DNA of 64,000 nt from an uncultured Gammaproteobacteria bacterium (GCA_964430475.1 CAYSEQ010000003.1:23832-87831), one strand, 5' to 3'; positions 3,266 through 61,749 are shown, numbered from the stretch's first letter. Notes: generated by a model from the sequence alone, not told the origin. Translations and numbers: made by a program.

Positions 3266-3486
3266 GTTTCCCTCTTAAATTCAAATTCTAAAATCTCTTT
3301 CTCTTTAATCAATGTTAAAATCTGAGCCAAATCTCTCCTTAGGTTTTTTACCTTCTTTAAGTTTTTTTCCCTACCAGAGACAATTTCTGCCCTCACCCTT
3401 TCAATCTCCAGCCTCTTCTCCTCAGCTAGATTCTTGAGTTCAGGAATTTCTTTTTTTCTTAGTTCTTGCAAATCTTTTTTCTTCAT
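3262..3486 (-). CDS. rpmC: 50S ribosomal protein L29 (uL29)
   Basis: 74-aa helical protein (LRKKEIPELKNLAEEKRLEI...); lies between L16 and S17; 4-nt overlap with rpsQ. Confidence 0.8.
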   Translation of the reverse strand: MKKKDLQELRKKEIPELKNLAEEKRLEIERVRAEIVSGREKNLKKVKNLRRDLAQILTLIKEKEILEFEFKRET

Positions 3487-3517
3487 GAGATTAGCAAAAA
3501 TTTCTAGCTAAATGACA

Positions 3518-3934
3518 TTAACCTGACGACTCCCTTGAAACAAATTTTGTCTTAAATGGCATCTTGGAAGCAGCTTTGGCAAAGGCTTCTTTGGCTAATT
3601 CATAATCAATACCAGCAACCTCATAGATTATCCTTCCAGGAGTAATCACGGCAACATATTTTTCAACCTCACCTTTTCCTCCTCCCATTCTCTGTCCTGC
3701 AGGCCGAGAGGTAACTGGTTTATCAGGAAAAACCCTAACCCACAATTTTCCACCCTTTTTAAGACTGTGAGTAATCGCTCGCCTTCCAGCTTCAATACTC
3801 TTGGCAGAAAGCCAACCTCTACCAACCGCCTTAAGACCATATTCCCCAAAAACCAAAGTTGAACCACGCACTGACTTCCCCCTCATCTTGCCTCTAAAAC
3901 TTTTTCTAAATTTTGTTTTTTTAGGCTCCAACAT
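3518..3934 (-). CDS. rplP: 50S ribosomal protein L16 (uL16)
   Basis: MLEPKKTKFRKSFRGKMRG... canonical uL16 N-terminus; 138 aa. Confidence 0.9.
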   Translation of the reverse strand: MLEPKKTKFRKSFRGKMRGKSVRGSTLVFGEYGLKAVGRGWLSAKSIEAGRRAITHSLKKGGKLWVRVFPDKPVTSRPAGQRMGGGKGEVEKYVAVITPGRIIYEVAGIDYELAKEAFAKAASKMPFKTKFVSRESSG

Positions 3935-3959
3935 TGCTTTTTAGGTACCTTAGAAAAAA

Positions 3960-4625
3960 TTATTCCTCTACCTTTTTATGAATATAAACCTTCACACCGA
4001 CATATCCTTTCTTTAAAAGAGCAGGTACTTGAGCGTAATCTATATTCTCTCTTAGGGTCTGGGTCGGAACTGAACCTTCCTGATACTTCTCAACCCTCGC
4101 TATCTCTGCACCAGCAATTCTACCGGATAAAATTACTTTTACTCCTAAAGCTCCTGCCTGCATAACTTTCTCCATAGCTCTGTGAACTACCCTCTTGTGA
4201 GGAAGACGTCTTTCTAACTCAGAGGCGATCCTGCTCGCAACTAAATACGCTGAAAGTTCTGGATTTTTGACTTCACTCACTCTTAAATCAATTTTTAACT
4301 CTTTCTCTAATTCTTTAATTCCTTTTTGGCGTAATTTACTAATAACCTCAAGAATGCTTCTTTTCAGCTCTTCTAGACCACTTCCTCCCCTTCCAATAAC
4401 CATTCCCGGTCTTGACACAGTAAGGTCTATATGGATACTTTTAGGTAGTCTTTCTATTTCTACATTGGTAATCCCAGAAAGTTTAAGTTTCTCCATCAAC
4501 ATCTCTCTTATCTTTATATCTTCAAGAAGGTAATTTTTTAAATTTCTACCTTCGACAAACCAACGAGACTTCCAGGGAGTAAAGCTCCCTACCCTAAATC
4601 CTATTGGATTAACCTTCTGTCCCAT
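3960..4625 (-). CDS. rpsC: 30S ribosomal protein S3 (uS3)
   Basis: MGQKVNPIGFRVG... KH domain; 221 aa. Confidence 0.9.
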   Translation of the reverse strand: MGQKVNPIGFRVGSFTPWKSRWFVEGRNLKNYLLEDIKIREMLMEKLKLSGITNVEIERLPKSIHIDLTVSRPGMVIGRGGSGLEELKRSILEVISKLRQKGIKELEKELKIDLRVSEVKNPELSAYLVASRIASELERRLPHKRVVHRAMEKVMQAGALGVKVILSGRIAGAEIARVEKYQEGSVPTQTLRENIDYAQVPALLKKGYVGVKVYIHKKVEE

Positions 4626-11453: not shown

Positions 11454-13631
11454 TTATGTGTTTCTATGAAATGTTACCGTGCCTCTCTGGGATATTAAAT
11501 TACTAGCTATATTTGGCGGAACTTCTTCATAATGGCTAGGCTCCATATAAAAACTTGCCCTGCCTTGGGAAATTGAACGAAGTCGTGTGGCGTATCCTGC
11601 TAGTTCAGCAAGTGGGGCTAATGCTAAAATGACCGTAAGATTTCCCCTCTTTTCTGTCCCTTGGATCTGGGCTCTCTTACTTGACAGATCGCCGATGATA
11701 TCGCCCATGAATTCTTCTGGTGCAGTCACTTCAAGTTTCATGATAGGCTCAAGGAGCACCATATCAGCTTTTTTTGCCGCCTCCTCAAGTGCTAAAGATC
11801 CTGCAATCTTGAATGCTATCTCGGAGGAATCAACTTCATGAAAGCTTCCGTCATAAACAACAACCCTCATATCAGTCATTGGGAAACCCGCCAAAATACC
11901 ATTTTCCATCTTTTCTCTGACCCCTTTTTCAATGGCAGGAATAAATTCCGCAGGAATGGCACCACCTTTTATTTCACTCTTCCACTCAAAACCCTGCCCC
12001 CTACCAAGAGGTTCTATTCTTAAAAAGCAATGTCCATATTGCCCTCTTCCCCCGGTTTGGCGTATATATTTTCCTTCACCAGTAGCAATCTTTTTTATAG
12101 TTTCTTTATAAGCAACCTGAGGAGTACCAGTTTTGGCATCGACACCAAATTCTCTCTTCATTCGGTCAACAAGTATCTCAAGTTGGAGTTCTCCCATACC
12201 GGAAATAATCGTCTGACCCGTTTCAGGATTTGACTTTATCCTAAATGTAGGATCCTCATCTGAAAGTTTCTGAAGCGCAATACCCATCTTTTCCTGATCC
12301 TGTTTAGTTGCAGGCTCGATAGCCAAAGAAATCACGGGTTCAGGAAATGTAGGCGGTTCAAAAAGAATTGGATGGTTTCTATCTGCCAAGGTGTCTCCTG
12401 TTGAGGTATCTTTTATACCTACTGCAGCCACAATTTCGCCTGTAAATGCCTCCTCAATCAATTCTCTCTGATCCGCATGAAGAAGTACAAGTTTCCCTAT
12501 ACGCTCAGCTTTTTGTTTACTAAAATTGTAAACAACATCACCTACCTTTACCTTTCCAGAATAAATTCTCAAGTATACTAGCCTTCCCACATGCGGATCC
12601 GTAACCACTTTAAAAGCAAGCGCAGAAAAGGGGGCGTTGTTGCTGGGTTCTCTTGTTTCTTTCTCTTGTGTCTGAGGATTTAACCCTTCCACTGGAGGTA
12701 AATCTAATGGCGAAGGTAAATACTCGATCACTGCGTCTAAAAGAAGCTGGACAGTTACCATTCGGTTATCCCCACCTAAAATTGGGAAAAATTTGCCCGT
12801 AATTACACCCTTTCTTATTGCTCTTTTAAGCTCTACTTCGCTGGGTTCCTTACCCTCCAAATACTTTTGCAACGCTTCATCATCAAACTCAGAAACCTTC
12901 TCAATTAACTCAGCTCGGTAAGCTTTTGCCATTTCCAAAACCTCGGCTGGAATTTCTTCTTCTGTCAATTTATTATCGTCAATACCTTTGTAAGTGTAAG
13001 CCTTCATTTTCACTAGATCGACAACACCCCTAAGCGCATGTTCTAACCCAATTGGAATTTGAATTGGGGAAGCGTTGGCACCAAGACGCTCCCTTATAGA
13101 TTTAATACTCCCCTCAAAATCCGCACCTATTAAATTTAATTTATTCAAAGAACAAATCCTTGGAACATGGTATTTATCTGCTTGCCTCCAAACTGTTTCT
13201 GATTGACTCTCTACACCAGTCCTACCATCAAAGACCATTATTGCACCATCCAAAACCCTTAATGAACGTTCGACTTCAGCGGTGAAATCAATATGGCCAG
13301 GGGTGTCAATGATATTTATCCTATAATGCCCTTGGGCTAGGGGTGAATTTTCTTCTCTAAGATCCCAAAAAGTAGTAATCGCTGCCGAAACAATTGTTAT
13401 ACCTCGTTCCCTTTCCTGTTCCATCCAGTCAGTAACTGTAGTTCCTTCATCAACGCTTCCTAGTTTATAGGTCTTTCCGGTCTCAAAGAGAATTCTTTCT
13501 GTAGTCGTGGTCTTTCCAGCATCAATATGAGCAATAATCCCAATATTCCGGATTTTTTCCAATGGAACAATACGGTCTTTTGTAACCGTCATCACCATAG
13601 CTGACTTTTTTTTGATCTGCTGTGCCGGCAT
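11454..13631 (-). CDS. fusA: elongation factor G
   Basis: AHIDAGKTTTTERIL, five-domain length 725 aa; str-operon position. Confidence 0.95.
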   Translation of the reverse strand: MPAQQIKKKSAMVMTVTKDRIVPLEKIRNIGIIAHIDAGKTTTTERILFETGKTYKLGSVDEGTTVTDWMEQERERGITIVSAAITTFWDLREENSPLAQGHYRINIIDTPGHIDFTAEVERSLRVLDGAIMVFDGRTGVESQSETVWRQADKYHVPRICSLNKLNLIGADFEGSIKSIRERLGANASPIQIPIGLEHALRGVVDLVKMKAYTYKGIDDNKLTEEEIPAEVLEMAKAYRAELIEKVSEFDDEALQKYLEGKEPSEVELKRAIRKGVITGKFFPILGGDNRMVTVQLLLDAVIEYLPSPLDLPPVEGLNPQTQEKETREPSNNAPFSALAFKVVTDPHVGRLVYLRIYSGKVKVGDVVYNFSKQKAERIGKLVLLHADQRELIEEAFTGEIVAAVGIKDTSTGDTLADRNHPILFEPPTFPEPVISLAIEPATKQDQEKMGIALQKLSDEDPTFRIKSNPETGQTIISGMGELQLEILVDRMKREFGVDAKTGTPQVAYKETIKKIATGEGKYIRQTGGRGQYGHCFLRIEPLGRGQGFEWKSEIKGGAIPAEFIPAIEKGVREKMENGILAGFPMTDMRVVVYDGSFHEVDSSEIAFKIAGSLALEEAAKKADMVLLEPIMKLEVTAPEEFMGDIIGDLSSKRAQIQGTEKRGNLTVILALAPLAELAGYATRLRSISQGRASFYMEPSHYEEVPPNIASNLISQRGTVTFHRNT

Positions 13632-22328: not shown

Positions 22329-22376
22329 GTCCCAGATCTTGTCTGGGACAAAAAAATTTAACGTACTTTTGTACGC
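22329..22376 (-). promoter_or_regulatory. two adjacent hairpins separated by a U-tract in the rpoB 5' leader (candidate attenuator)
   Basis: Seen: GTCCCAGA-tcttg-TCTGGGAC (8-bp stem) and CGTAC-tttt-GTACG. In minus sense the order is hairpin, UUAAAUUUUUUU, hairpin, then 20 nt to the rpoB ATG. Confidence 0.4.
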
Positions 22377-22492
22377 CTATGCTGGATTATAGCTTAGAAA
22401 ATCAAGTTGTCAAGATCCTTGTAGAAACTATGTACATTTTTAGTTACTTACTAAATTTTTAATTCCAAATTCTAGACAAACTACAAATAAAT

Positions 22493-24042: not shown

Positions 24043-24243
24043 TTATACTTCTTCAATAAGAGCTCTACGGTAAGTTTTTGTTTTGGGATTATAAATATAA
24101 ATTCTTCCGCAAGAATGAGTTACTTTAAAGGTGCCATCTTTCCTTTTTTCCCTCTTAGCCTTCGCTAAAGGCTGGCCATCTGCCACACATCTCCCTTGAG
24201 AAATTAGCCACGCCTGAATTGGTGCAATGACATTTTTAAACAT
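24043..24243 (-). CDS. hypothetical small basic protein (66 aa), possible C/H metal-binding
   Basis: ORF only; CVADG...HSCG motif; no family recognised. Confidence 0.3.
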   Translation of the reverse strand: MFKNVIAPIQAWLISQGRCVADGQPLAKAKREKRKDGTFKVTHSCGRIYIYNPKTKTYRRALIEEV

Positions 24244-24284: not shown

Positions 24285-24695
24285 TCAGCCTTTCCTTTTT
24301 TTAGCTAACTTTTCGTCCAAATACGATTGAAGAATCAATGCTGCAGAATAAGCGTCCTCAAACTTCTTCCTTTTTTTTCTCCTTATACCAGCCTTGATTG
24401 AAAGCTGCCTTGCTTCATAGGAAGTCAAAGTCTCGTCTTGAAAAACAATCGGAATACGCAATCTCTTTCTAACCTTTTTCCCAAATTCCAGCGTTTCTTT
24501 AGCCATCCTAGCTTCAGAAATCCCTAAAACCAACAAGTCTATTTTCTCCAATTGAATGACATTTCGGATTTTTCTTAGCACATCCTCAAAAGAATAAAAT
24601 CTAAAAACAGTGTAAGGCTGCGCAATTCCAGAATCGCTATCAGCCAAAGCTAGTCCAATTTTCTTTTTTCCAAAATCAACTCCTAATATCTGCAT
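24285..24695 (-). CDS. ruvX: Holliday-junction resolvase-like / pre-16S rRNA nuclease YqgF (RuvX)
   Basis: MQILGVDFGKKKIGLALAD... RNase H-like start typical of YqgF; 136 aa. Confidence 0.8.
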   Translation of the reverse strand: MQILGVDFGKKKIGLALADSDSGIAQPYTVFRFYSFEDVLRKIRNVIQLEKIDLLVLGISEARMAKETLEFGKKVRKRLRIPIVFQDETLTSYEARQLSIKAGIRRKKRKKFEDAYSAALILQSYLDEKLAKKRKG

Positions 24696-25371
24696 TTGCT
24701 TCTGTGGGTCTTGCTAGTCTTGCCCTGACAATTAACCTTTTGGGTTTTCTTGGGTCTCCTGGGGGTGTACAGGTTACCAAAGTTAGGTAGCTATAGCTTG
24801 AATTTTGCTCTAGAATTCCCAACTCTGTGGGTAACACTTCAAACATTTCCTCAACTTCATATTGGTAAGTAACCCCATCAAAATCCACATAGATCAAATC
24901 ACCCTTATCAAGCTTATAAAGAGTTGAGAATATTGAGAGATAATTTTTGGGATTGTAAAAAATTGGTAAAACTGAGTGTCCGAAAATAACTGTATTTCCA
25001 ATTTCTCCTGGGAAACTTGTACCTGCGTATTGGATAAGGCTTTGTGAAAGATCATCTCCGCCCACCTTGACAATTGCACTTTGAATATTTAACCTAGGAA
25101 TTGTAATCGAGTAGTATTTCACCGGGATTGAATTAAAATCCTTCTCACTAAGCCCCTCAAACCAGTTCCTTGCTTGGGTATAGTCTTTTTGGGAAAATTT
25201 AAAACTAGCCTTATCTGCATCTACCAAAGGACTGATAAGTAAAGGGTAGCGGCGAGCGGACTCCCATTCGTAGGAAAAGATAGGATAAAGACTCGAAAAC
25301 AATATAACAACACCTGATAATCCCATAATCACCGCACAAATTCTTAGAATAATCTTCTGTGCCATAACCAA
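24676..25371 (-). CDS. sortase family transpeptidase
   Basis: N-terminal TM; catalytic His (VIFGHSV) and TLVTC Cys motif followed by conserved Arg (RLIVRARL). Confidence 0.7.
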   Translation of the reverse strand: MVMAQKIILRICAVIMGLSGVVILFSSLYPIFSYEWESARRYPLLISPLVDADKASFKFSQKDYTQARNWFEGLSEKDFNSIPVKYYSITIPRLNIQSAIVKVGGDDLSQSLIQYAGTSFPGEIGNTVIFGHSVLPIFYNPKNYLSIFSTLYKLDKGDLIYVDFDGVTYQYEVEEMFEVLPTELGILEQNSSYSYLTLVTCTPPGDPRKPKRLIVRARLARPTEANADIRS

Positions 25372-25376
25372 TTTTG

Positions 25377-27626
25377 CTATTGATTTTCCGCAGTTAATTC
25401 TACCTCAATATTTTTCGCGACATGAGGAAGAGTTTTTAACCTACCGGGAAAGGTAGGCCGAATCCTAATCTCTGCCCTTACAAACCCAGGTACTTCCTTC
25501 TCCAATGTCTCCTCCGCTACATCGATATACCGCCCTCTAACCCTTTCTACTACCTTATCAGTATCAACCTTAGGCAGAAGGTTTGCGGAAACTTTTAATT
25601 TATACTGATACAAATTATCTTTCATAGTTTTTACATCAAAACTGAAATTCATTTGTTCACTCTTGAGGACAAAACCCTCAGGTAATTTTTCCGAAAGCTT
25701 TTCCTGAGAAACTCTGACTAAATCTTCCTTCTTAACAAAAACCCCCTTAACCTTTAAGGTTAAAAGGAGCTTTAAACTAGTAGCTTCATCACCTACCTTA
25801 TTACTAAATTCTTCGGAAGAAGAAGAAACACTAATTGATTCTTCGATAAAAAATTCATCGCTTGATAATTTTTTCAGAAATTCTTGCTTAGCTTTATCTA
25901 AAAGTTCATCTTCCAACTCTTTGCTTAGAAGTTCGCGGTCTTTCTCGGAAACTGCACTTATCTCACGGCTTGAACCGCCACTAAATGCGTTTTCATTTTT
26001 TGCTTCAACATCGTTAGTGGAAAAGTTTGCAACACTAAAACTTGTACCCGAGGCAAGATTGTACTGTGCACCAATGTCTTCAGCCGTAACCGGACCTTTT
26101 GCAGTTCCTGGCGAACTTGCACTCCCACTAGCAACAGTCAATGTCGTATCGAGTATAAAATCAAGGTCATCCGGACCATGAATAATCGTCCCTGTAGGAA
26201 GAGTCAACTCTGGCCCAACCCTATAAAAAGTAACTTCGCCCTTTGCTTTTTCTCCGACGGTTTTTGTACCTGTTGTCTCCCTAGTTCTTTCTCCTGAAAC
26301 CTCTACTTCCTCAATTCTGCCTCCAACAACCAATGCCTCCGAATTTTGGCTTAAGTCTTGAGTATTACTAACTATTATATCAATCTCCTCCTTCAATGAC
26401 CGAGGTGCTACATAAATTGTTATTTCAGCTTTAGGATAAAACCACCAGAACAAAAATCCTAAAGCCATAAAAATAAAAAGGGTTAAAAATCCGTAAAAAA
26501 TGGGTGTTTTTACTGGACCTCTGAAAAGATTTATAGGAAAACTTAGAACTTGCAAAATACCTTCTTTCAACCTTCTCTTTATAGCATTTATTACACCAAC
26601 CAAATAAGACGAGACCTTGGAATTTGAAACCGAAGTGTCTATTTGGGTTTTTGAGCTTGAAAATTCATCTACTTGAAGATAGTCAGGTGAAGGAGGCAAC
26701 TGAGAAACCTCTTCTTCTTTTGCTTGGGATACTGACACATCCTTTTCCAAAACAAAACCCATTTCTTGAGGAGAAACTTTTTCTTCCTCCTCATCTTCTT
26801 TAGGCTTGGCTGTTTCATCAACCCCCACGGAAGCCTCCTCTGGGAAATTCTCTTTGGCTAAACTTATCGAAGTTGCCTTTCCTATTTCCGCCGCACCAGC
26901 AAGTGACACAGCGCTTACCTTATTTATAGGGTCAATAATTTCAACCTTTGGTGTATGAAAAAACTTTAACTTGTCTTGCTCTTCCCACTTTACATTCAAA
27001 ATCATCTGCCTAGCTTCTTCTAATTCTCCTTCCTTGCCGTTGTAAAGCACAAACCTTGAAGGGAGATCTACACCAACAAAACGCGAAAGGCCCTCTATAA
27101 GATCGTCAGCTAAAGATACACTTCTTGCGACATTGCTTGTGCCTACTAAATTTCCAAACTTAAACACAGAGATTTCAATATTGTCTTTATAGACTCCAAT
27201 TATTACTGCATTAACTGCACCACCTTCCTGACTCTTGATAAAGTGAGCTATAGCTTCAGATATAACAACAAATCCTATAGGAGTAAGGGATAGTTCTGAA
27301 CATAAAGACTTTACTTTTTCAAGATATTCTTCCTTGATTTGGTCGCCTGAAATCCAAGATGAGGGAAAACCAAAGACAGCCTTTGATGGTTCACGCTCTT
27401 GTGGTTTGAACTTTTGAATCGCGGAGGATAATGCGGAATCCGCTGCATCTACCAACTCCGGGTCTTCTTGCCAAGGACAGGAATTACTGCTTGCAATAAC
27501 CTGCGTACTATTTTCAAAAATCCTCCATATGCCTGCAGTTACCCAACCTGGCTCAATTATTAATGACCAATAATATTCTTCCGAATCTCCGAAAGATTCT
27601 TTGGGCAGAAATTTTTTAAAATTCAT
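25377..27626 (-). CDS. membrane protein: N-terminal actin-fold (PilM/FtsA-like) cytoplasmic domain, acidic linker, single TM, ~360-aa extracellular domain
   Basis: Hydrophobic patterning of ASKHA strands (LIIEPGWVTAGIW...; GAVNAVIIGVYKDNIEISVF...GTSNV). TM at PIFYGFLTLFIFMALGFLFWWF. No LPXTG at the C-terminus. Confidence 0.45.
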   Translation of the reverse strand: MNFKKFLPKESFGDSEEYYWSLIIEPGWVTAGIWRIFENSTQVIASSNSCPWQEDPELVDAADSALSSAIQKFKPQEREPSKAVFGFPSSWISGDQIKEEYLEKVKSLCSELSLTPIGFVVISEAIAHFIKSQEGGAVNAVIIGVYKDNIEISVFKFGNLVGTSNVARSVSLADDLIEGLSRFVGVDLPSRFVLYNGKEGELEEARQMILNVKWEEQDKLKFFHTPKVEIIDPINKVSAVSLAGAAEIGKATSISLAKENFPEEASVGVDETAKPKEDEEEEKVSPQEMGFVLEKDVSVSQAKEEEVSQLPPSPDYLQVDEFSSSKTQIDTSVSNSKVSSYLVGVINAIKRRLKEGILQVLSFPINLFRGPVKTPIFYGFLTLFIFMALGFLFWWFYPKAEITIYVAPRSLKEEIDIIVSNTQDLSQNSEALVVGGRIEEVEVSGERTRETTGTKTVGEKAKGEVTFYRVGPELTLPTGTIIHGPDDLDFILDTTLTVASGSASSPGTAKGPVTAEDIGAQYNLASGTSFSVANFSTNDVEAKNENAFSGGSSREISAVSEKDRELLSKELEDELLDKAKQEFLKKLSSDEFFIEESISVSSSSEEFSNKVGDEATSLKLLLTLKVKGVFVKKEDLVRVSQEKLSEKLPEGFVLKSEQMNFSFDVKTMKDNLYQYKLKVSANLLPKVDTDKVVERVRGRYIDVAEETLEKEVPGFVRAEIRIRPTFPGRLKTLPHVAKNIEVELTAENQ

Positions 27627-27779: not shown

Positions 27780-29600
27780 CTATTTTTCTAAAACGCTATA
27801 AATTCTAATAAGCCCACTTCCTACTTTTTCCTGCTTCTTAATTTTAACACGCCCTATCTCAGAAGTACGAGAAACATGAGGTCCTCCACAAAATTCTTTA
27901 CTGAACGCATTCTCTAAGCTTTCTCCGATAAAATAAACCTTTACCATATCAGCGTATTTCTCATTAAAGGCATGTATGGCTCCAGTTTTTAAAGCCTTGT
28001 CTTTAGGCATGATCTGAAAATTGACGGGTAGGTCCTTCTCGATAACATCATTAACCATATCTTCGACTGCCTTAAGCTGGCTATCGCTTAATTTCTCGGG
28101 ATTAGGAAAATCAAATCTACTTCTTTCTTTAGTTATGTTTTGTCCCATCTGGATAACATGCTCACCCAGTATCTTTCTTAAAGAGGCTAATAAAAGATGC
28201 GTTGCTGTGTGGAGCTTGATTGTCTCAGGTGAATTATCAGCAAGTCCTCCTTTAAATACTCCCGCTGAGGTTGTACGACTTAAATCCCTATGTTTTTGAA
28301 ATTCTCTCTCAAACTCCTTTTCGTCTAATCTCAAACCCTTTTTTTGGGCTAATTCCTTGGTAACCTCAAACGGAAAACCATAAGTCTGGTATAGGTCAAA
28401 GGCAATCTTAGCATCAATCTCTTTTTTTTCTTCAATAATTTTTAGACCATACTCAAGGCTCCTACTGAATTTCAAAAGTTCCTCCTCTAAGACATTTTCT
28501 ACCTCTTTTCTAAAAATTCCACTATCAGGAAGTATTTCTTGATAAGTCCTTATTACTTCGTCCCCAAGGTCCTTTAGCTGAGGTATGGAGACTATTCCCT
28601 GTCCAAGCTGATAAAACTTGACTGCACTTCTCCTTATCAGCCTTCGCAACACATAGCCATGTAATTTATTTGAAGGAAGTACCTTGTTTGCTATTAAAAA
28701 AACACTCGCTCGTATATGATCCGCTATTACCCTAAACTCTGGTTTGTTCTTCTCATACTCTAAACCGGTCAGTTTTTCAATCTCCAACAAAAGATTTTTG
28801 AAAAGATCAGTCTTAAAAACATCCGGATCATCGTTAGTAGCTGCAGTAATCCTTTCCAAACCCCCTCCAAAATCAACATTTTTTTGAGGCAGTTCTTGCA
28901 ACCTACCCTCAACCTTCTTATATTGAATAAAAACGGAGTTTCCTATTTCCAAAAATCTTCCACAGTTACAGTTAGGATGGCAAGGACGAGAGGCGTTTTC
29001 CGAATTCTCATGAATCTTTTTTTTAGCATCAGGGTCAAAATCGTAAAAAACTTCTGAATCTGGACCACCTATTTCTCCAATAGGCATTTCATCGGGTGTC
29101 CCGCTCCTACTCCACCAATTTTTCTCCACTCCATAATAAAAAATCCTTTCTTTGGGAATGCCTATCTTTTTCCAAATATGAGTTGATTCTTCATCTCTGG
29201 GAACATTTTTATCACCTTTAAAAACAGTCACCCACAACCTTTCCTTGGGTAAACCTAACTTTTGGGTCAAAAATTCAAAAAACCAGACCAACTGTTCCTT
29301 CTTGAAATAGTCACCAAAACTCCAATTGCCAAGCATTTCAAAAAAAGTAAGATGGTGAGTATCACCAACCTCTTCTATATCAACAGTACGTATACATGGC
29401 TGGGAGTTAACAAGTCTTTTTTTGCCCGAAGGGTGAGGTTCACCCATAAGGTAGGGGACTAGGGGTTGCATTCCTGAAGAAATAAAAAGGGTTGTAGGAT
29501 CATCTTCCAAGACTAAAGGGGCGGGGGCTATTTCAATATGATTTCTGGGAAATTCCTTAAAAAACTCTATGAATTTAGTTCTAACTTTTCTTGACTCCAT
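27780..29600 (-). CDS. alaS: alanine--tRNA ligase lacking the C-Ala domain
   Basis: Catalytic-core motifs (RLVNSQPCIRT, FFEMLGNWSFGDYFK), editing-domain HxxxH (TATHLL) and CGGPH; ~607 aa from Met at 29600. The ORF continues to 29681 but the AlaRS alignment begins at MESRKVR. Confidence 0.85.
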   Translation of the reverse strand: MESRKVRTKFIEFFKEFPRNHIEIAPAPLVLEDDPTTLFISSGMQPLVPYLMGEPHPSGKKRLVNSQPCIRTVDIEEVGDTHHLTFFEMLGNWSFGDYFKKEQLVWFFEFLTQKLGLPKERLWVTVFKGDKNVPRDEESTHIWKKIGIPKERIFYYGVEKNWWSRSGTPDEMPIGEIGGPDSEVFYDFDPDAKKKIHENSENASRPCHPNCNCGRFLEIGNSVFIQYKKVEGRLQELPQKNVDFGGGLERITAATNDDPDVFKTDLFKNLLLEIEKLTGLEYEKNKPEFRVIADHIRASVFLIANKVLPSNKLHGYVLRRLIRRSAVKFYQLGQGIVSIPQLKDLGDEVIRTYQEILPDSGIFRKEVENVLEEELLKFSRSLEYGLKIIEEKKEIDAKIAFDLYQTYGFPFEVTKELAQKKGLRLDEKEFEREFQKHRDLSRTTSAGVFKGGLADNSPETIKLHTATHLLLASLRKILGEHVIQMGQNITKERSRFDFPNPEKLSDSQLKAVEDMVNDVIEKDLPVNFQIMPKDKALKTGAIHAFNEKYADMVKVYFIGESLENAFSKEFCGGPHVSRTSEIGRVKIKKQEKVGSGLIRIYSVLEK

Positions 29601-29702
29601 ATTGAATTGAATTATAGCGTTGATAGAAGTTTGAATCCAGATTAAAAACTCAAGAAAGATCCAAGTACGAGTTTCCTGCAAGAGGTATTTATTAAAGAAA
29701 AC

Positions 29703-30038: not shown

Positions 30039-30668
30039 CTAACTTTTTAAATTTGGTTCTATCTTACGTCTAACAACAGTCTCTTTTCCAGCCCTAGATT
30101 TAGCCAACACCACGATCTCATAAGTTTTTTCTGAAATCTCGATTTCAGCTTCAAACCTACCATCCTCTCCAACTAATGTTGGCTGGTTATTTATAAGAAC
30201 AGCAGCATCAGGATCAGTTTTCCCCTTGACGATAAGCACCTTTCCAAATACTTTCTGATTTTCTGTAGGGGACTCTATCAAAAGTTCAGGCGGTTTTATA
30301 AAATTAAAATATTCATAAATCAAATAACCTACAATAAACAAGCCAGCCAAAACTACTCCCAAAATAAAACTTAACCTTGGAGTCCAAACAAACTTTTCGG
30401 GAATCTCCACTTTGGGATTTATCTTAACTTCCCTCGGGGGATAGTCTCTTCTTAAAAGGGCGAGAAGAAAAGACTCGTTAAGTTTAAGGATGGACGAAAG
30501 ACTCTTGACAAAACCCACGACTACTGGATATTCTGGCAACTTTCCCCAGTCTCCTTTTTCTAAGGCTTCAATGAACTCTTTTTTAATCTTAGTTTCTTTC
30601 TCAAGCCTCTCCCTGGAAAGTTTCTTTTTGACACGTGCTTCCTTGATTATTCCACCAATAGACTTCAT
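30039..30668 (-). CDS. RodZ-like HTH-domain membrane protein
   Basis: N-terminal XRE-type HTH (SRERLEKETKIKKEFIEALEKGD), central TM, C-terminal beta-rich domain. Confidence 0.5.
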   Translation of the reverse strand: MKSIGGIIKEARVKKKLSRERLEKETKIKKEFIEALEKGDWGKLPEYPVVVGFVKSLSSILKLNESFLLALLRRDYPPREVKINPKVEIPEKFVWTPRLSFILGVVLAGLFIVGYLIYEYFNFIKPPELLIESPTENQKVFGKVLIVKGKTDPDAAVLINNQPTLVGEDGRFEAEIEISEKTYEIVVLAKSRAGKETVVRRKIEPNLKS

Positions 30669-55430: not shown

Positions 55431-55976
55431 ATGGCTGCCCGAAAAGACCAAATAAATCTTCTACCAGGCTTGGGTTTTGAGGCAACAACGACAGGCAGAA
55501 TTCTTGCCTGGCTTCTTTCAACCTTTAGAGTAATTGTGATTATCACAGAAATTATAGTGATGGCCGCGTTTATATCAAGGTTCTGGTTTGATACCAAAGT
55601 TACGGATCTTTCAGATGAAATTAAAGAAAAAACAGCAATCTTATCATCGTATTCTAACTTTGAAAAAGAGTTTAAGGATACACAAACAAGATTGAAAATT
55701 TTCTCAGATTTTACAAAAGACGAGGACATGCTTCCAAAAACACTAAATACCATCACCTCTTTTCTTCCTACTGACCTTTTTTTGACCTCGCTTTCTTTAA
55801 GTGAAAATTCACTAGAACTTTTAGGTTCAACGCCCAATGAAAGAAGTATTCAACAATTTATTACCAATCTTTATTCAACAGAGCAATTTGAGGAGATAAA
55901 TATCGTTGACTTGCAATCAAACATTAAAACTGAGAATCTTTTAGATTTTAAGATAACAGCAAAACTTAAAAAATAA
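55431..55976 (+). CDS. pilN: type IV pilus assembly protein PilN-like
   Basis: N-terminal INLLP motif, single TM, periplasmic coiled-coil and C-terminal domain pattern (LPTDLFLTSLSLSENSLELLGST). Confidence 0.6.
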   Translation: MAARKDQINLLPGLGFEATTTGRILAWLLSTFRVIVIITEIIVMAAFISRFWFDTKVTDLSDEIKEKTAILSSYSNFEKEFKDTQTRLKIFSDFTKDEDMLPKTLNTITSFLPTDLFLTSLSLSENSLELLGSTPNERSIQQFITNLYSTEQFEEINIVDLQSNIKTENLLDFKITAKLKK

Positions 55977-55980
55977 AAAT

Positions 55981-56646
55981 ATGAATCCGGGTTGGAGGTC
56001 AAGCTACATAAGATATAAATCTTACTTCCTAAATGTGATGGCGAGATATCGCGAACGTGCAGATGTCAAGGCGTACTTAGAAATTCTACTCTCACTAGCC
56101 ACAATCTCAATTCTCGCTATTTTTGCATTAAAACCAACTCTGGTGACTATTTCTCAATTAATTAAAGAGATTGAAGCAAAAAAGGAGGCGCTTACTAAGA
56201 TGAATGAAAAGATTCAAAACTTAAGTAGGGCACAAAATCTTTACGAGAAAGAAAAATCCAAAATTTTACTTCTTTCAAGTGCAATTCCTGAAAAAGCAGC
56301 CCCTGAGTTATTTGCACGACAAATTCAGGGTTTGGCTGACAAACATAAGGTAGACGTCCCCTCACTCGGAATTCAGGGTGGTGTAATTTTGGGAGGGCAA
56401 TCTTTACCAAGAAGCCCAGAAACCTCTCAGTCCAAAGAAAATGTAAATGAATTGAAATTTTCGATTAATGTCGACTCCTCCCTAGAAGGATATATTCGAC
56501 TTGTTAATTTCCTCACAGACCTCGAAAAGCTAAGGACAGTCAACAAAATTGATTCTTTGAAAATTGCGACCATTACCAAAAATAACCAAAAGTCTTTGTT
56601 AATGTCTATAAACGGTAATCTACCATATTACTTTAAACAACAATGA
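55981..56646 (+). CDS. pilO: type IV pilus assembly protein PilO-like
   Basis: TM, coiled-coil, C-terminal domain with GYIRLVNFLTDLEKLRTVNKIDSLKI pattern; follows pilN with a 4-nt gap. Confidence 0.45.
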   Translation: MNPGWRSSYIRYKSYFLNVMARYRERADVKAYLEILLSLATISILAIFALKPTLVTISQLIKEIEAKKEALTKMNEKIQNLSRAQNLYEKEKSKILLLSSAIPEKAAPELFARQIQGLADKHKVDVPSLGIQGGVILGGQSLPRSPETSQSKENVNELKFSINVDSSLEGYIRLVNFLTDLEKLRTVNKIDSLKIATITKNNQKSLLMSINGNLPYYFKQQ

Positions 56647-57717: not shown

Positions 57718-58176
57718 ATGAAAGAATTTTTTAAAACAAAATTCATTACACTCCTTGTTGTTTCTGCGACAATAATTTTAACATTTGTTGCAGTTTTTAC
57801 AGCCTGGAAATTGTATCAAACAACAAAGCTAAGTCCTGAGGAATCTTTGGGTCAAGAAGGAGTCCCAATATATTCCTGTACGACCATTACTTTTAGTATC
57901 TCAACAAACCAACCAACGCCCACAACACCCATAGAACCAACACGACCAATTCCCACACCAACGCCAACTCCTCTGGCGCAAAGAAATACACCAACGCCAA
58001 CTCCTCTGGCGCAAAGAAATACACCAACGCCAACTCCCTCTATAAGAACCACCACACCCACTCCAACTCCAACTCCCGCTTCACTCCCACAAGCTGGAAT
58101 TATTTCACCTACACTATCGGCCCTGGGCTTAGGAATTCTGGTAATAGCAACATCGCTTGCTTTGTTAATTTTTTAG
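57718..58176 (+). CDS. Pro/Thr-repeat surface protein with LPQAG plus C-terminal hydrophobic segment (sortase-substrate-like)
   Basis: N-terminal signal-anchor, TPTPTPLAQRN tandem repeats, LPQAG followed by a 25-aa hydrophobic stretch at the extreme C-terminus. Confidence 0.5.
   Translation: MKEFFKTKFITLLVVSATIILTFVAVFTAWKLYQTTKLSPEESLGQEGVPIYSCTTITFSISTNQPTPTTPIEPTRPIPTPTPTPLAQRNTPTPTPLAQRNTPTPTPSIRTTTPTPTPTPASLPQAGIISPTLSALGLGILVIATSLALLIF
57958..58040 (+). repeat. perfect 33-bp tandem repeat (2.5 copies) inside the PT-repeat protein
   Basis: ccaacgccaactcctctggcgcaaagaaataca repeated exactly twice, then a partial copy. Confidence 0.8.
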
Positions 58177-58391: not shown

Positions 58392-60032
58392 TTGGCTATC
58401 ATGTACGCTTTAAAGGTTTTTAGAAATCAAATAGGCGAGTTTCTCCTTCTTCTTATTTTTTTTATTTTTTCTTCAATTCTTATGTGGAAAACTTTCAGGA
58501 TTGACCCCTCCGGAAACATGCAAATTGCTTCAAAGGCTTGGAGCGATTTTTCTGCCACAATACCTCTCATCAGGTCATTTTCTTTTGGTGATAATTTTCC
58601 ACCCGAATATCCGCTGTTTTCTGGACCAGCTATAAAATACCACTTTGTTTTTTTTGCAATTGTAGGATTTTTAGAAAAAATTGGTTTACCCTTGGATTTG
58701 GCTTTAAACCTACCCAGTAGCATTTCATTCTTCCTACTTCTATCTGCCATTTATTTTTTTGGAAAGATGGTTTTTAAAAGTAAAAGGGTGGCAATTCTTT
58801 CTGTCGTTCTTTTTCTCTTTAATGGATCTTTAGGATTTCTGGAATTTTTTAAAAAAAATCCGCTATCCTACAAGATTATCTGGGAAATTTTAAAAAACAA
58901 GGAGTTTACCTCATTTGGTCCTTGGGATGGAAAGGTAGTTTCTGCATTTTGGAGTCTTAATATCTTTACAAACCAAAGGCACCTTGCCTTTGCCTATGCA
59001 AGTTTTCTCTTTCTTATTCTTGCAATCTTTAGGTTTTCTCAAAATCCACGAAGGTTTAGCTCTAAGTATATTCTTCTTATGGGAATCCTTACTGGTTTAT
59101 TTCCCTTCATCCACCTTGCTGTATTTGGAATGATGCTTGTAACTTTAATCCTTTCATCTTTAGTCTTTCCTAGAATAAGAAGGATGTTAATAATATCAAT
59201 TGTAATCTCTATTCTTTTAGCAACTCCCCAACTTCTTTACATGGGTTTTGAAAGTAAGGGTGGTTTTTTTAAACCCGGATATCTTATTGAGGAGTTAAAT
59301 TTTTTCAATTTTGTGAAATATTGGTTTTACAATTTAGGACTAACTTCAATACTTTCACTTTTGGGATTTATACTCCTTGACAAGAACCGTCGTAAGATTT
59401 TCATCCCATTTTTAGCTTTTTTTGTGATGGGAAATCTTTTTCAGTTTACCCCTGCAACTATTGACAACCATAAATTTTTTAATCTTACAGTAATAGGGCT
59501 GAATTTCCTAACATCCTTTTTTCTCGTCAACCTCTGGAATAAAAAAGTTTGGTTAAGAGCCCTTTTCTTTCCTTCCCTTCTTATCTTAACTTTAACAGGG
59601 ATCATTGACTTCTTTCCCATCATAAATGACCGATTAGTAACATTAGAAGATGCCACCAACAATAAAACAGTAAGTTTTATTCTTTATAACACTTCCCCTG
59701 ATTCCTCATTTTTAAACGCTTCTTACATTTTTGACCCTGCAAGTTTAGCCGGAAGAAAAATCTACCTTGGTTGGCACTATTTTCCCTGGTCTTTAGGCTA
59801 CGATACAACCTTTAGACAAAGACTTATTGAAGAGGTTCTGAACTCCAATGATAAAGCTACAATATGTAATTTCTCAAAATCTGAGAAGATAGACTATCTT
59901 GAGGTAAAAAAACCAGCGTCTTTACATCATGTTTTTTATAACTACGATTTCTTTAATTCAAATTTTTTTGAGGTGTTTAGAAACGGGGATAACTTCTTTA
60001 TTTACGACTTAAAAAAATCCTGTAACTACTAA
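58392..60032 (+). CDS. polytopic membrane protein, DUF2298/YYY-family paralog 1 (GT-C-like)
   Basis: Multi-TM N-terminus plus ~150-aa C-terminal soluble domain; loop motif DP...PPEYPLFSGPAIKYHFVF parallels the PD...PPQD.WF.GKPINYYWFGH of paralog 3. Confidence 0.4.
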   Translation: MAIMYALKVFRNQIGEFLLLLIFFIFSSILMWKTFRIDPSGNMQIASKAWSDFSATIPLIRSFSFGDNFPPEYPLFSGPAIKYHFVFFAIVGFLEKIGLPLDLALNLPSSISFFLLLSAIYFFGKMVFKSKRVAILSVVLFLFNGSLGFLEFFKKNPLSYKIIWEILKNKEFTSFGPWDGKVVSAFWSLNIFTNQRHLAFAYASFLFLILAIFRFSQNPRRFSSKYILLMGILTGLFPFIHLAVFGMMLVTLILSSLVFPRIRRMLIISIVISILLATPQLLYMGFESKGGFFKPGYLIEELNFFNFVKYWFYNLGLTSILSLLGFILLDKNRRKIFIPFLAFFVMGNLFQFTPATIDNHKFFNLTVIGLNFLTSFFLVNLWNKKVWLRALFFPSLLILTLTGIIDFFPIINDRLVTLEDATNNKTVSFILYNTSPDSSFLNASYIFDPASLAGRKIYLGWHYFPWSLGYDTTFRQRLIEEVLNSNDKATICNFSKSEKIDYLEVKKPASLHHVFYNYDFFNSNFFEVFRNGDNFFIYDLKKSCNY

Positions 60033-60060: not shown

Positions 60061-61749
60061 ATGATAAAAATACTTAAAGACAAAAGATTTATTTTGATTT
60101 TAATCTTTATTTTAGCAGCAATATTTAGGCTTTATGGTTTAAACTGGGACGAAAACAACCACCTTCACCCGGACGAGAGATTTCTTACAATGGTTACAAC
60201 TTCACTTGAATTTCCCAAAAGTATAAGGGGTTTCCTTGACCCTAAACTTTCAACATTCTCACCCTACAACAAAGGCTACCCCTTTTACGTATACGGGACA
60301 TTTCCTTTAATAGTTGTTAAATTTTTTTCTTCCTTCATTCACTTAAACGCGATTCCTTACAATAACATAACCTTAGTCGGAAGAACCATCTCTGCGTTTC
60401 TTGATTTGGGTACTCTTCTTCTTGTATTTCTAACTGCTTTAAAAATATTCAATAAAGAGATCGCGGTACTAGCTACATTTTTCTATTCCGTCTCTGTCTT
60501 TCCTATACAACAATCGCATTTTTTTATAGTCGATTCCTTCCTTGTCTTTTTTTCAACCTTAACAATCCTTTTTATTATCTATCTTCTCAAGAACTTTAAA
60601 ATAATTTATTCGGCTCTTGCTGGAGTCTTTTTTGGTCTTGCCCTTGCAAGCAAAATTTCAGCCTTAGTTTTACTTCCGACAATAGGACTTTCCTTCGTTT
60701 TTCTTTTAGTTTTTAAGAAAGCGAAGGCATCAAAAATTTTTCTTGCGATCTTGGTATTTTTACTTTTTGGTTACATTTCTTTTCGCCTAACTGATACCAA
60801 GACATTTTCCAGCTCAAATATCTTCAATCCCAGCCTTAACCAACTATTCGTTAATAATTTAAAACAATTAAAATCTTTTGAGGGTAAAGATACTTTCTAC
60901 CCACCCGCAATCCAGTGGATTAAGACGAAGCCACTACTTTTCCCATTTAAAAATCTCGTCTTCTGGGGATTAGGTCTTCCGCTTGGTCTTCTAGCCATAC
61001 TAGGAACTCTTTTCTCTATCAAAGAATTATTTTTAGCTTTTAGAAGCTTTAATAAATTAACCATCAACCAAGCTTTAGAAATCATCATTCTTTCCTTTGT
61101 CCTAATTCTTTTTCTCTACCAAGGTATGCAGTTTGCAAAGACTATGCGCTATTTTTACCCTATATATCCTTTTTTAAGTATATTTGCGGCAAGGTTTTTC
61201 TATCTCCTAACCAAAAAATTAAAATCACAAGTGGTCTGGGCTCTAAGTTTTCTACTTCTTGTTATTTGGCCGATTTCTTTTATCCAAATATACACTAGGC
61301 CCCACACCCGTATCTTAGCGAGCAAGTGGATTTACGAAAATATCCCTCCTGGATCTACTCTTTCTTGTGAATATTGGGACGATTGTCTTCCGCTGTCTTT
61401 TGTTAAACAAGACTCAGCAATCTTCTTCAAGACCGAGACATTGCACCTTTTTGAACCTGATACTCCAGAAAAATGGGAGAAAATAAACCGACAACTTGAG
61501 AAAATTGATTATTTAATTTTGTCCTCAAATCGTCTCTGGGGTACTATACCTAAGGTTCCAGAAAAATACCCTATCACCTCTGAATTCTACCAAAAACTTT
61601 TTGCAGAAGAACTTCAATTTAATAAAGTGGCAGAATTTACTTCTTATCCAACAGTTCCAATTCTTAATTTATCAATAAATGATCTCTCCGCGGAGGAGAC
61701 TTTCACTGTTTATGACCATCCGAAAGTAATTATTTTTAAAAAAAGATAG
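60061..61749 (+). CDS. polytopic membrane protein, DUF2298/YYY-family paralog 2 (GT-C-like)
   Basis: HPDERFL...GYPFYVYGTFP motif in the first extracytoplasmic loop; 12+ TM; C-terminal soluble domain. Confidence 0.5.
   Translation: MIKILKDKRFILILIFILAAIFRLYGLNWDENNHLHPDERFLTMVTTSLEFPKSIRGFLDPKLSTFSPYNKGYPFYVYGTFPLIVVKFFSSFIHLNAIPYNNITLVGRTISAFLDLGTLLLVFLTALKIFNKEIAVLATFFYSVSVFPIQQSHFFIVDSFLVFFSTLTILFIIYLLKNFKIIYSALAGVFFGLALASKISALVLLPTIGLSFVFLLVFKKAKASKIFLAILVFLLFGYISFRLTDTKTFSSSNIFNPSLNQLFVNNLKQLKSFEGKDTFYPPAIQWIKTKPLLFPFKNLVFWGLGLPLGLLAILGTLFSIKELFLAFRSFNKLTINQALEIIILSFVLILFLYQGMQFAKTMRYFYPIYPFLSIFAARFFYLLTKKLKSQVVWALSFLLLVIWPISFIQIYTRPHTRILASKWIYENIPPGSTLSCEYWDDCLPLSFVKQDSAIFFKTETLHLFEPDTPEKWEKINRQLEKIDYLILSSNRLWGTIPKVPEKYPITSEFYQKLFAEELQFNKVAEFTSYPTVPILNLSINDLSAEETFTVYDHPKVIIFKKR

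Follow-up and report, generated by a model that had tools for sequence, protein, structure and literature searches.

What might a protein do that joins a cytoskeleton-type adaptor to a phage baseplate module through a membrane helix, with a sortase gene directly behind it? The question is raised by X, a 749-residue open reading frame (ORF) in a 64,000-nucleotide stretch of DNA filed under an uncultured Gammaproteobacteria bacterium (GCA_964430475.1 CAYSEQ010000003.1:23832-87831), which was analysed at its full length and is called the window below. A preliminary description of this DNA had given the interval 24676-27626 for the fusion gene. The interval consists of two minus-strand ORFs: the 749-residue ORF is real and occupies 25377-27626, while 24676 is the end of the second ORF, which encodes a 231-residue sortase (Table 1). 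The plan of X resembles those of GspL and FtsA, but the module outside the membrane is of phage baseplate origin, and the gene always accompanying X is the sortase. The reading that we favour, with a probability of roughly 0.4, is that X is a bitopic scaffold of the envelope, specific to Microgenomates, which acts with the sortase in cell-surface assembly as a coupler in the style of GspL and FtsA.

Architecture and distribution of X

AlphaFold2 modelled residues 1-262 of X, from an alignment with 40 homologs (A1), as two successive beta-beta-beta-alpha-beta-alpha-beta-alpha units (residues 18-134 and 140-249; pLDDT 90.7, pTM 0.88). As modelled, the domain is a bare IA+IIA core of the ASKHA/actin fold, made up of two RNase-H-like units, ~240 residues long, with no inserted subdomain (neither 1C nor 2B). 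Foldseek returned 570 PDB matches at E<=1e-3. The best was PilM of P. aeruginosa (5eoy, E 1.1e-8, TMq 0.57), followed by FtsA of Vibrio, Staphylococcus and Thermotoga (7q6i, 3wt0 and 4a2a among the top matches) and, later, by Ppx/GppA phosphatases, BcrAD-type activase subunits and a small Bacteroides actin-like protein of unknown function. The actin-like N-terminus proposed in the preliminary description is thus borne out by model and structural matches, and the outcome that it had named as refuting, an N-terminal domain that is not actin-like, did not occur. We rejected membership of the domain in any ASKHA family at the level of sequence, where it is an orphan: X matched no ASKHA family in Pfam or NCBIfam and, at E<=1, not the PilM family in particular (Pfam PilM_2, NCBIfam pilM); none of 41 N-domains of the family matched an ASKHA family at E<=1, PilM_2, FtsA and SHS2_FTSA included; and no sequence in the PDB was matched by phmmer, or with the A1 profile at E<=10.

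The alignment contains 36 invariant residues in this domain, among them E25, E124, G144, R168, D175 and G244. The following equivalences to ATP-binding motifs were read from the sequence and the strand order of the model rather than from a residue-level structural alignment. E25, within I-E-P-G at the end of strand 1, would occupy the phosphate-1 position, where FtsA has E-I-G; E124, within P-E-A-I-A-H, would fall at the 'EPxAA' position; the first helix of IIA carries R168-S169...D175..E178-G179..R182; and the adenosine position would be L-A-G244-A-S-E, that is, GA instead of GG. The motif positions thus read have the flavour of FtsA, PilM and MreB. The column of the phosphate-2 Asp is Leu, Ile or Val, and the glycine-rich turn is V-Y-K-E. 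Canonical ATP hydrolysis has probably been lost, and the domain is likely non-catalytic. The filament or ATPase activity originally ascribed to X is accordingly doubtful, because the phosphate-2 Asp is apparently gone, GG appears as GA, and neither 1C nor 2B is inserted.

The linker that follows varies in length from 82 to 162 residues across the family (~120 in X), and Asp and Glu make up 19% of it in X and ~21% on average. Within it lies a short linear motif with the family consensus [ST][AP]E[DE][LF]GF[VA][VLI]xxD[IV], found in 304 of 356 family members as against 25 of 356 shuffled linkers. A single hydrophobic transmembrane (TM) helix is present in 355 of the 356, so the acidic linker and single helix stand as first described. 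We infer an N-in/C-out topology, because, averaged over 356 members, the 15 residues ahead of the helix hold 3.4 Lys and Arg and those behind it 2.1, and because there is no signal-peptide-like N-terminus. In X itself, the 25 residues ahead of the helix contain six Lys/Arg and one Asp/Glu. Just after the helix, 'WWFYPKA' recalls the YPK(N) pilin motif of sortase-assembled pili. We rejected this candidate, since the column of the Lys varies (K103/R12/T2/Q1/H1/S1) and the residue is therefore not a conserved nucleophile.

The part of X beyond the helix was modelled as residues 368-749, from an alignment with 32 homologs (A2). The preliminary description was right about a large external region, which it put at ~360 residues, but not in calling its family unrecognisable. 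Pfam Baseplate_J (PF04865) matched residues 456-555 with 35.8 bits (gathering score 21.1, E 6.9e-9), PHROG phrog_6 ('baseplate wedge subunit') matched X with E 3.1e-10, and diffocin TRI-2 (8v3w) was matched with E 0.009 from the single sequence and 0.0025 with a profile. Foldseek matched the ectodomain to J or wedge proteins of phage XM1 (E 4.6e-7), diffocin, cyanophage A-1(L), Mu, phi812, Pa193 and phiCD508, and also to the barrel domain of Streptomyces GlxA; the named matches in BFVD were nearly all annotated as baseplate J-like or baseplate wedge. The ~100-residue barrel superposed on phage baseplate proteins with a root-mean-square deviation (rmsd) of 2.2-3.4 A at 18-29% identity. Alignments of the whole ectodomain to J proteins were colinear over 340-370 columns, with a TM-score of ~0.2 and an rmsd of 24-38 A. 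We regard the homology of the barrel to baseplate J proteins as secure and that of its flanks (residues 399-449 and 557-749) as not secure. The alpha-beta-beta-alpha-beta-beta order after the barrel suggested a PilN/PilO-like domain, which we rejected at the level of sequence, as hhalign of residues 556-749 against a 72-sequence PilN profile gave 0.4% probability. AlphaFold2 models and Foldseek thus uphold the overall plan as first drawn, a putatively cytoplasmic actin-fold domain joined by one TM helix to a large external domain.

Table 1. Positions of X, its parts and associated features in the window
Feature	Residues	Coordinates	Strand	Basis or remark
Gene X, 749-residue bitopic membrane protein	1-749	25377..27626	-	Actin-fold domain, linker, TM helix, baseplate-J-like ectodomain
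Core-only ASKHA (actin-like) domain, predicted cytoplasmic	17-256	26859..27578	-	IA + IIA; no IB/1C or IIB insertion
Acidic variable linker, probably disordered	257-374	26505..26858	-	Low conservation
Short linear motif in linker, SPQEMGFVLEKDV	285-297	26736..26774	-	Conserved in family
Basic, hydrophobic juxtamembrane segment, predicted cytoplasmic side	340-368	26523..26609	-	Read from sequence
Single TM helix, predicted N-in/C-out	375-398	26433..26504	-	Kyte-Doolittle maximum 2.16
Predicted extracytoplasmic domain	399-749	25380..26432	-	AlphaFold2 pLDDT 87.5, pTM 0.62
Baseplate_J-type beta-barrel, FSGGSSRE motif at end	~450-556	25959..26279	-	Pfam PF04865, phrog_6, Foldseek
Membrane-anchored sortase, 231 residues, co-transcribed partner of X		24676..25371	-	Pfam Sortase E 6.5e-27
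RuvX/YqgF, context gene		24285..24695	-	Pfam RuvX E 1.9e-30; 20-nucleotide overlap with sortase ORF
Possible sortase substrate, Pro/Thr-rich, LPQAG and hydrophobic tail		57718..58176	+	Link to sortase not shown; orthologs in L088 and L089

The fusion is not the departure from the norm for which it had been taken. The plan of X, an actin-like cytoplasmic domain, one TM helix and an external domain, recurs in GspL/EpsL of type II secretion and in PilM-PilN fusions, and the actin-like domain of GspL is thought not to need ATP. X differs from GspL in giving no T2SSL or GspL_C match in Pfam and in its long, probably disordered linker. Both GspL and PilM-PilN fusions have a ferredoxin-like external domain of the PilN/GspM type in place of the baseplate-J barrel, and X, unlike them, is not encoded with GspE/F/M or PilB/C and lies in no secretion or pilus operon, its partner gene being the sortase. 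Like PilM, its top structural match, X has a segment, LAGASE, that resembles a PilM one (LAGG), but PilM has ~350 residues with 1C and 2B, and X has no sequence-family match to it, is membrane-anchored and is not beside pilN/O, since it lies between alaS and the sortase gene and not in a pilMNO(PQ) or type IV pilus locus. FtsA is among the top structural matches of X (7q6i, 3wt0, 4a2a) and shares with it the E-x-G read as phosphate-1 and membrane attachment through a flexible C-terminal linker. However, FtsA attaches by an amphipathic helix, where X has a true TM helix and a 350-residue ectodomain, and X has no 1C/SHS2, has apparently lost the phosphate-2 Asp and is not in a dcw cluster. X is thus not an ordinary FtsA with a membrane-targeting helix, since 351 further residues follow the helix at residues 375-398. 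With the baseplate wedge J family (P2 gpJ, Mu gp47, T4 gp6, diffocin TRI-2) X shares a barrel above the Pfam gathering score and the F-x-GG-x-x-x-E signature. Unlike these proteins it is TM-anchored, predicted to lie outside the cell and fused to an actin-fold domain, and its gene belongs to the chromosomal core of a cellular lineage, has no close relative among viruses and has no tail-cluster genes nearby.

Of 587 homologs of X, the top 120 (44-54% identity) are full-length proteins that align with it from residue 1 onward. A search with the N-domain profile gave 1,427 clusters at 50% identity (E<=1e-3), 693 of them at E<=1e-30. The complete proteins listed from it are almost all 670-820 residues long with the domain at the N-terminus, and the shorter entries look like fragments. 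Members at 28-39% identity still align with X end to end. Named homologs belong to Candidatus Woesebacteria or Microgenomates; at the level of species genomes the family occurs in Woesebacteria, Blackburnbacteria and unclassified Microgenomates or Patescibacteria, to which a search from a divergent member added Beckwithbacteria. The family is seen here only in Microgenomates, and X is single-copy in the loci examined. The same gene block of the Candidate Phyla Radiation (CPR) recurs in several records labelled 'uncultured Gammaproteobacteria', and the window, whose genes include those for ribosomal proteins, EF-Tu, EF-G, rpoB/C, IF-2, NusA, DnaK/J, ClpB, PNPase and MurJ, is the housekeeping core of a CPR bacterium. 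In the literature that we searched on CPR actin-like, baseplate J, sortase or FtsA proteins we found no description of the family, and the terms 'Baseplate' and 'PF04865' are absent from the supplements of PMC6744442, which reports that protein families enriched in Microgenomates are mostly hypothetical proteins, many of them predicted membrane proteins. X is thus a conserved and apparently undescribed domain combination.

The matches to Baseplate_J and to the PHROG wedge subunit would also be expected if X were a remnant of a prophage or tailocin, with a decayed tail gene accidentally joined to the ORF beside it. This explanation is effectively refuted by conservation and gene context: the full-length architecture is kept in ~1,400 clusters, down to 28% identity, X occupies a fixed slot in a housekeeping block, no other tail genes are near, and 2.9 million viral contigs contained no relative. 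That last search also led us to reject a recent acquisition from phage, and the lack of a PADLOC match led us to reject a defence system. Given the core-genome position, the absence of a close viral relative and the absence of a defence match, the locus is not phage or defence cargo.

Gene order around X and its sortase

We surveyed 91 related loci, ~85 of which extend beyond X. As a rule the order is FtsK, a RodZ-like protein (HTH_25 and Ig), small TM protein(s), AlaRS, X, sortase, RuvX, a 66-residue ORF, YceG/MltG, rpoB and rpoC, and the sortase gene is immediately 3' of X in all of the ~85 loci. The sortase ORF starts 5-11 nucleotides past the stop codon of X and overlaps ruvX by 20 nucleotides. 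This spacing and overlap, together with the Pfam assignments of Sortase and RuvX, confirm the operon with sortase and YqgF that the preliminary description had proposed. Of its two neighbours the sortase adjoins X in every locus that reaches it, but YqgF/RuvX is split from the sortase in three divergent relatives, where a NUDIX gene and two membrane protein genes (L084), an EamA gene (L085) or a NUDIX gene (L086) are inserted between sortase and ruvX, and none between X and sortase. The arrangement alaS-ruvX-mltG is widespread in bacteria (in B. subtilis, for example, it reads alaS-yrzL-yrrK-yrzB-yrrL), and RuvX and YceG therefore form the backbone, within which X and the sortase look like a unit. 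RuvX/YqgF is probably not part of the X-sortase system.

The sortase has an N-terminal TM helix and a Sortase domain with FGH(132), TC(201)TP and the downstream Arg present. It matches NCBIfam sortase_fam with E 7e-18, yet falls under every class-specific cut-off. Sortase is reported to be near-ubiquitous in Microgenomates (PMC6744442). We rejected X as a substrate of the sortase, because its C-terminus bears no LPXTG-like signal followed by a hydrophobic tail. Sheath, tube, gp25/gpW or gpI-type genes were found neither in the neighbourhood in the window nor in the related loci.

The neighbours FtsK, RodZ-like HTH_25 protein and YceG/MltG, all conserved, bring to mind a tether for division or elongation, an FtsA/ZipA-like anchor whose actin-fold domain would bind FtsZ, FtsA, MreB or the RodZ-like protein and whose ectodomain would connect that element with the synthesis or remodelling of the wall. 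The RodZ-like HTH is encoded at 30039-30668 in the window. FtsA ranks high among the structural matches, the phosphate-1 motif of X is the FtsA-like E-x-G, a globular domain on a long disordered membrane tether is also found in ZipA and FtsA, and the linker motif is, by eye only, loosely like the acidic-[IL]-P-x-F peptide of the FtsZ C-terminus. Nevertheless, we consider such a tether unlikely. X is without 1C and 2B, which FtsA uses for binding its partners and FtsZ, not one of 41 members has an FtsA or SHS2 match in Pfam, X stands outside any dcw/ftsZ context, and the neighbourhood is a general housekeeping block; moreover, a tether would leave the baseplate-J ectodomain and the sortase unexplained.

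Several neighbouring genes have features of their own. The AlaRS gene of the window (27780-29681, minus strand) encodes a short enzyme, ~606 residues if translation begins at the likely MESRKV (the ORF as called opens further upstream, at a TTG), and its relatives have 571-649 residues; AlaRS of E. coli has ~875. As tRNA-synt_2c and tRNA_SAD are its sole domains, it seems to lack the C-terminal portion found in the longer AlaRS enzymes of model bacteria. Between ruvX and yceG lies a basic 66-residue ORF (24043-24243, minus strand) that matches no family; an ORF of 65-66 residues is found at this position in the nine relatives examined. The inserts of L084 (11753-13710) are the NUDIX gene and genes for a 390-residue polytopic membrane protein and a 247-residue TM protein with a HEWGH zinc-protease motif. 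In the Beckwithbacteria relative (L085), a 352-residue bitopic protein is encoded between the RodZ-like gene and the small genes (3358-4416). Its C-terminal part gives a weak LytR_C match, and its N-terminal ~160 residues look by eye like half an actin-like domain ('IEPEVIARL'), so that it may be a second bitopic actin-fold protein of the clade.

X as a possible coupler between cytoplasm and sortase

How might such a protein act? If X is an envelope scaffold, its cytoplasmic module would bind a short peptide of a partner protein; the motif in its own linker is a candidate ligand of the N-domain, and such binding could lead to self-association. Peptide binding would set the position and oligomeric state of the ectodomain, which, together with the co-translated membrane sortase, would organise the attachment of surface proteins or of an appendage to the wall at that site. 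We favour this scheme for the following reasons. The PilM and FtsA structures matched by the N-domain include, by their titles, complexes with partner peptides: PilM:PilN(1-12) (5eou), FtsA:FtsZ(336-351) (4a2a) and FtsA:FtsN(1-29) (7q6i). GspL, in which a TM helix joins an actin-like domain to an external one, is a precedent for a transmembrane coupler. Wedge J proteins, to which the ectodomain barrel is related, are oligomerising structural units. In addition, the linker motif is far commoner than in shuffled linkers, the motif positions of the N-domain have an FtsA-like flavour, the single TM helix has a positive-inside bias, the architecture is stable down to 28-35% identity, X and sortase adjoin in all loci that reach far enough, in divergent members genes are inserted after the sortase only, and the locus belongs to the core genome.

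Several observations weigh against the scaffold. The block RNase J-FtsK-RodZ-like-...-AlaRS-X-sortase-RuvX-YceG-rpoBC is syntenic across the clade, and AlaRS is as invariably adjacent to X as the sortase is. The adjacency of X and sortase may thus partly be frozen gene order, and taken alone it is moderate evidence. X carries no sorting signal for the sortase, and the YPK that follows its TM helix has a variable Lys. Good superposition on J proteins is limited to the ~100-residue barrel, the rest giving a TM-score of ~0.2. Many of the 36 invariant N-domain residues are charged, and the N-domain might after all bind a ligand or act in catalysis, a role that we discounted. Finally, folds, architecture, conservation, the linker motif and the adjacency of X and sortase are observed here, and the topology, the loss of catalysis, peptide binding, oligomerisation and any coupling of X to the sortase are inferences.

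Contact with a host would be another task for a surface-exposed protein of this kind. The ectodomain would then be an adhesin or receptor-binding platform of an episymbiont, and the cytoplasmic domain would relay or regulate the contact. Phage wedge proteins carry or touch receptor-binding fibres, and the X family is seen here in Microgenomates only. PMC11623550 and 10.64898/2026.03.03.709456 describe cultivated CPR bacteria as episymbionts with lineage-specific surface machinery. However, the ectodomain is strongly conserved (62% mean column identity), whereas receptor-binding proteins usually vary fast, there are no fibre-like or other baseplate genes nearby, and the episymbiosis of Woesebacteria is itself inferred. 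A role in host contact thus appears quite improbable. The Pam pilus system of CPR bacteria (bioRxiv 10.64898/2026.03.03.709456) was considered and set aside as unrelated, since it consists of Ig-like pilins and PapD-like chaperones and has no actin-fold or baseplate-J component.

Microgenomates make up a large, uncultivated part of the CPR, and their surface biology is largely inferred from genomes. The X family is large, has a position in the housekeeping core and adjoins the near-ubiquitous sortase of the lineage. X shows clearly how a module of phage baseplates has been taken over by a membrane protein of cells and combined with an adaptor of cytoskeletal type. Should X truly be coupled to the sortase, this would amount to a sortase system controlled from the cytoplasm; to our knowledge, none has been described in Gram-positive models.

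The pilN locus and other features of the window

On the plus strand, at 55431-56646, the window contains a pilN-pilO pair which, as had been described, has no adjacent pilM. The first ORF (55431-55976) encodes PilN (Pfam E 3.6e-10), whose N-terminal region contains QINLLP; INLLP is kept in 66 of 72 homologs. The assignment of the second is weak, being GspM/PilO-like in NCBIfam with E 1e-4, below the cut-off. No pilM was found beside pilN in this rpsT-pilN-pilO-like locus or in two relatives with the same arrangement.

Close to this pair we found possible substrates of a sortase. The protein encoded at 57718-58176 has 152 residues. It carries a TM helix at the N-terminus and TPTPTP repeats, and towards its C-terminus LPQAG precedes a stretch of 25 hydrophobic residues; a basic tail is absent. 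The orthologs of this protein in two related loci, L088 and L089, end in LPDAG and a hydrophobic tail, and another neighbour ends in IPDSG, a TM segment and FRKT; these genes lie at 10834-11580 in L088 and at 12145-12756 and 9593-10927 in L089. The LPQAG, LPDAG and IPDSG tails are plausible candidates for non-canonical sortase signals. Downstream of the LPQAG protein, two large polytopic membrane proteins are encoded on the plus strand (58392-60032 and 60061-61749), the second of which matches PMT_2/PMT protein mannosyltransferase; this PMT-type neighbour hints that the Pro/Thr-rich LPQAG protein may be O-glycosylated.

Could X be the PilM that the orphan pair lacks, fused into the alignment complex of a pilus that is possibly sortase-dependent? 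PilM tops the structural matches, INLLP is retained in PilN, pilM is missing beside it here and in relatives, and the LPxAG-tailed proteins lie at the same locus. However, the PilM groove that receives INLLP of PilN is built with subdomain 1C, and X does not have this subdomain. X has no PilM_2 match in Pfam or NCBIfam match to the family, ~28 kb separate it from pilN, and its C-terminal part has no PilN-like profile similarity by hhalign (0.4%, as above). Furthermore, one complete genome from the Microgenomates is reported to carry a canonical pilM among its main type IV pilus genes (PMC7143001), and it is therefore probably such a pilM that serves the orphan PilN. The absence of 1C, the distance and this canonical pilM make X a poor candidate, and we hold the proposal to be very doubtful; the tie between X and pilN-pilO suggested in the preliminary description is unsupported.

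A bolder version of the favoured scaffold would be a trans-envelope assembly machine of Microgenomates, new to science, in which X and the sortase would be joined by the Pro/Thr-rich proteins with LPxAG tails and perhaps by the orphan PilN/PilO-like pair. In such a machine an outer ring or lattice derived from the baseplate wedge, held in position by the actin-fold adaptor inside, would template the sortase-dependent construction or anchoring of an appendage for contact with other cells. We offer this as a speculation, with the odds clearly against it.

In the window, G+C varies between ~33 and 44% (2-kb bins), GC skew is negative in all 2-kb bins of 1-64000 (-0.37 to -0.01), and the minus strand bears nearly all genes. 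The title of PMC7143001 reports a strand-composition disparity in a Microgenomates genome, with which skew and gene strand in the window agree. Upstream of rpoB, on the minus strand, a perfect 12/12 sigma-70 consensus promoter (22386-22413) was found, with TTGACA, a 16-nucleotide spacer and TATAAT, and two terminator-like hairpins (22329-22377) lie between it and the rpoB start codon.

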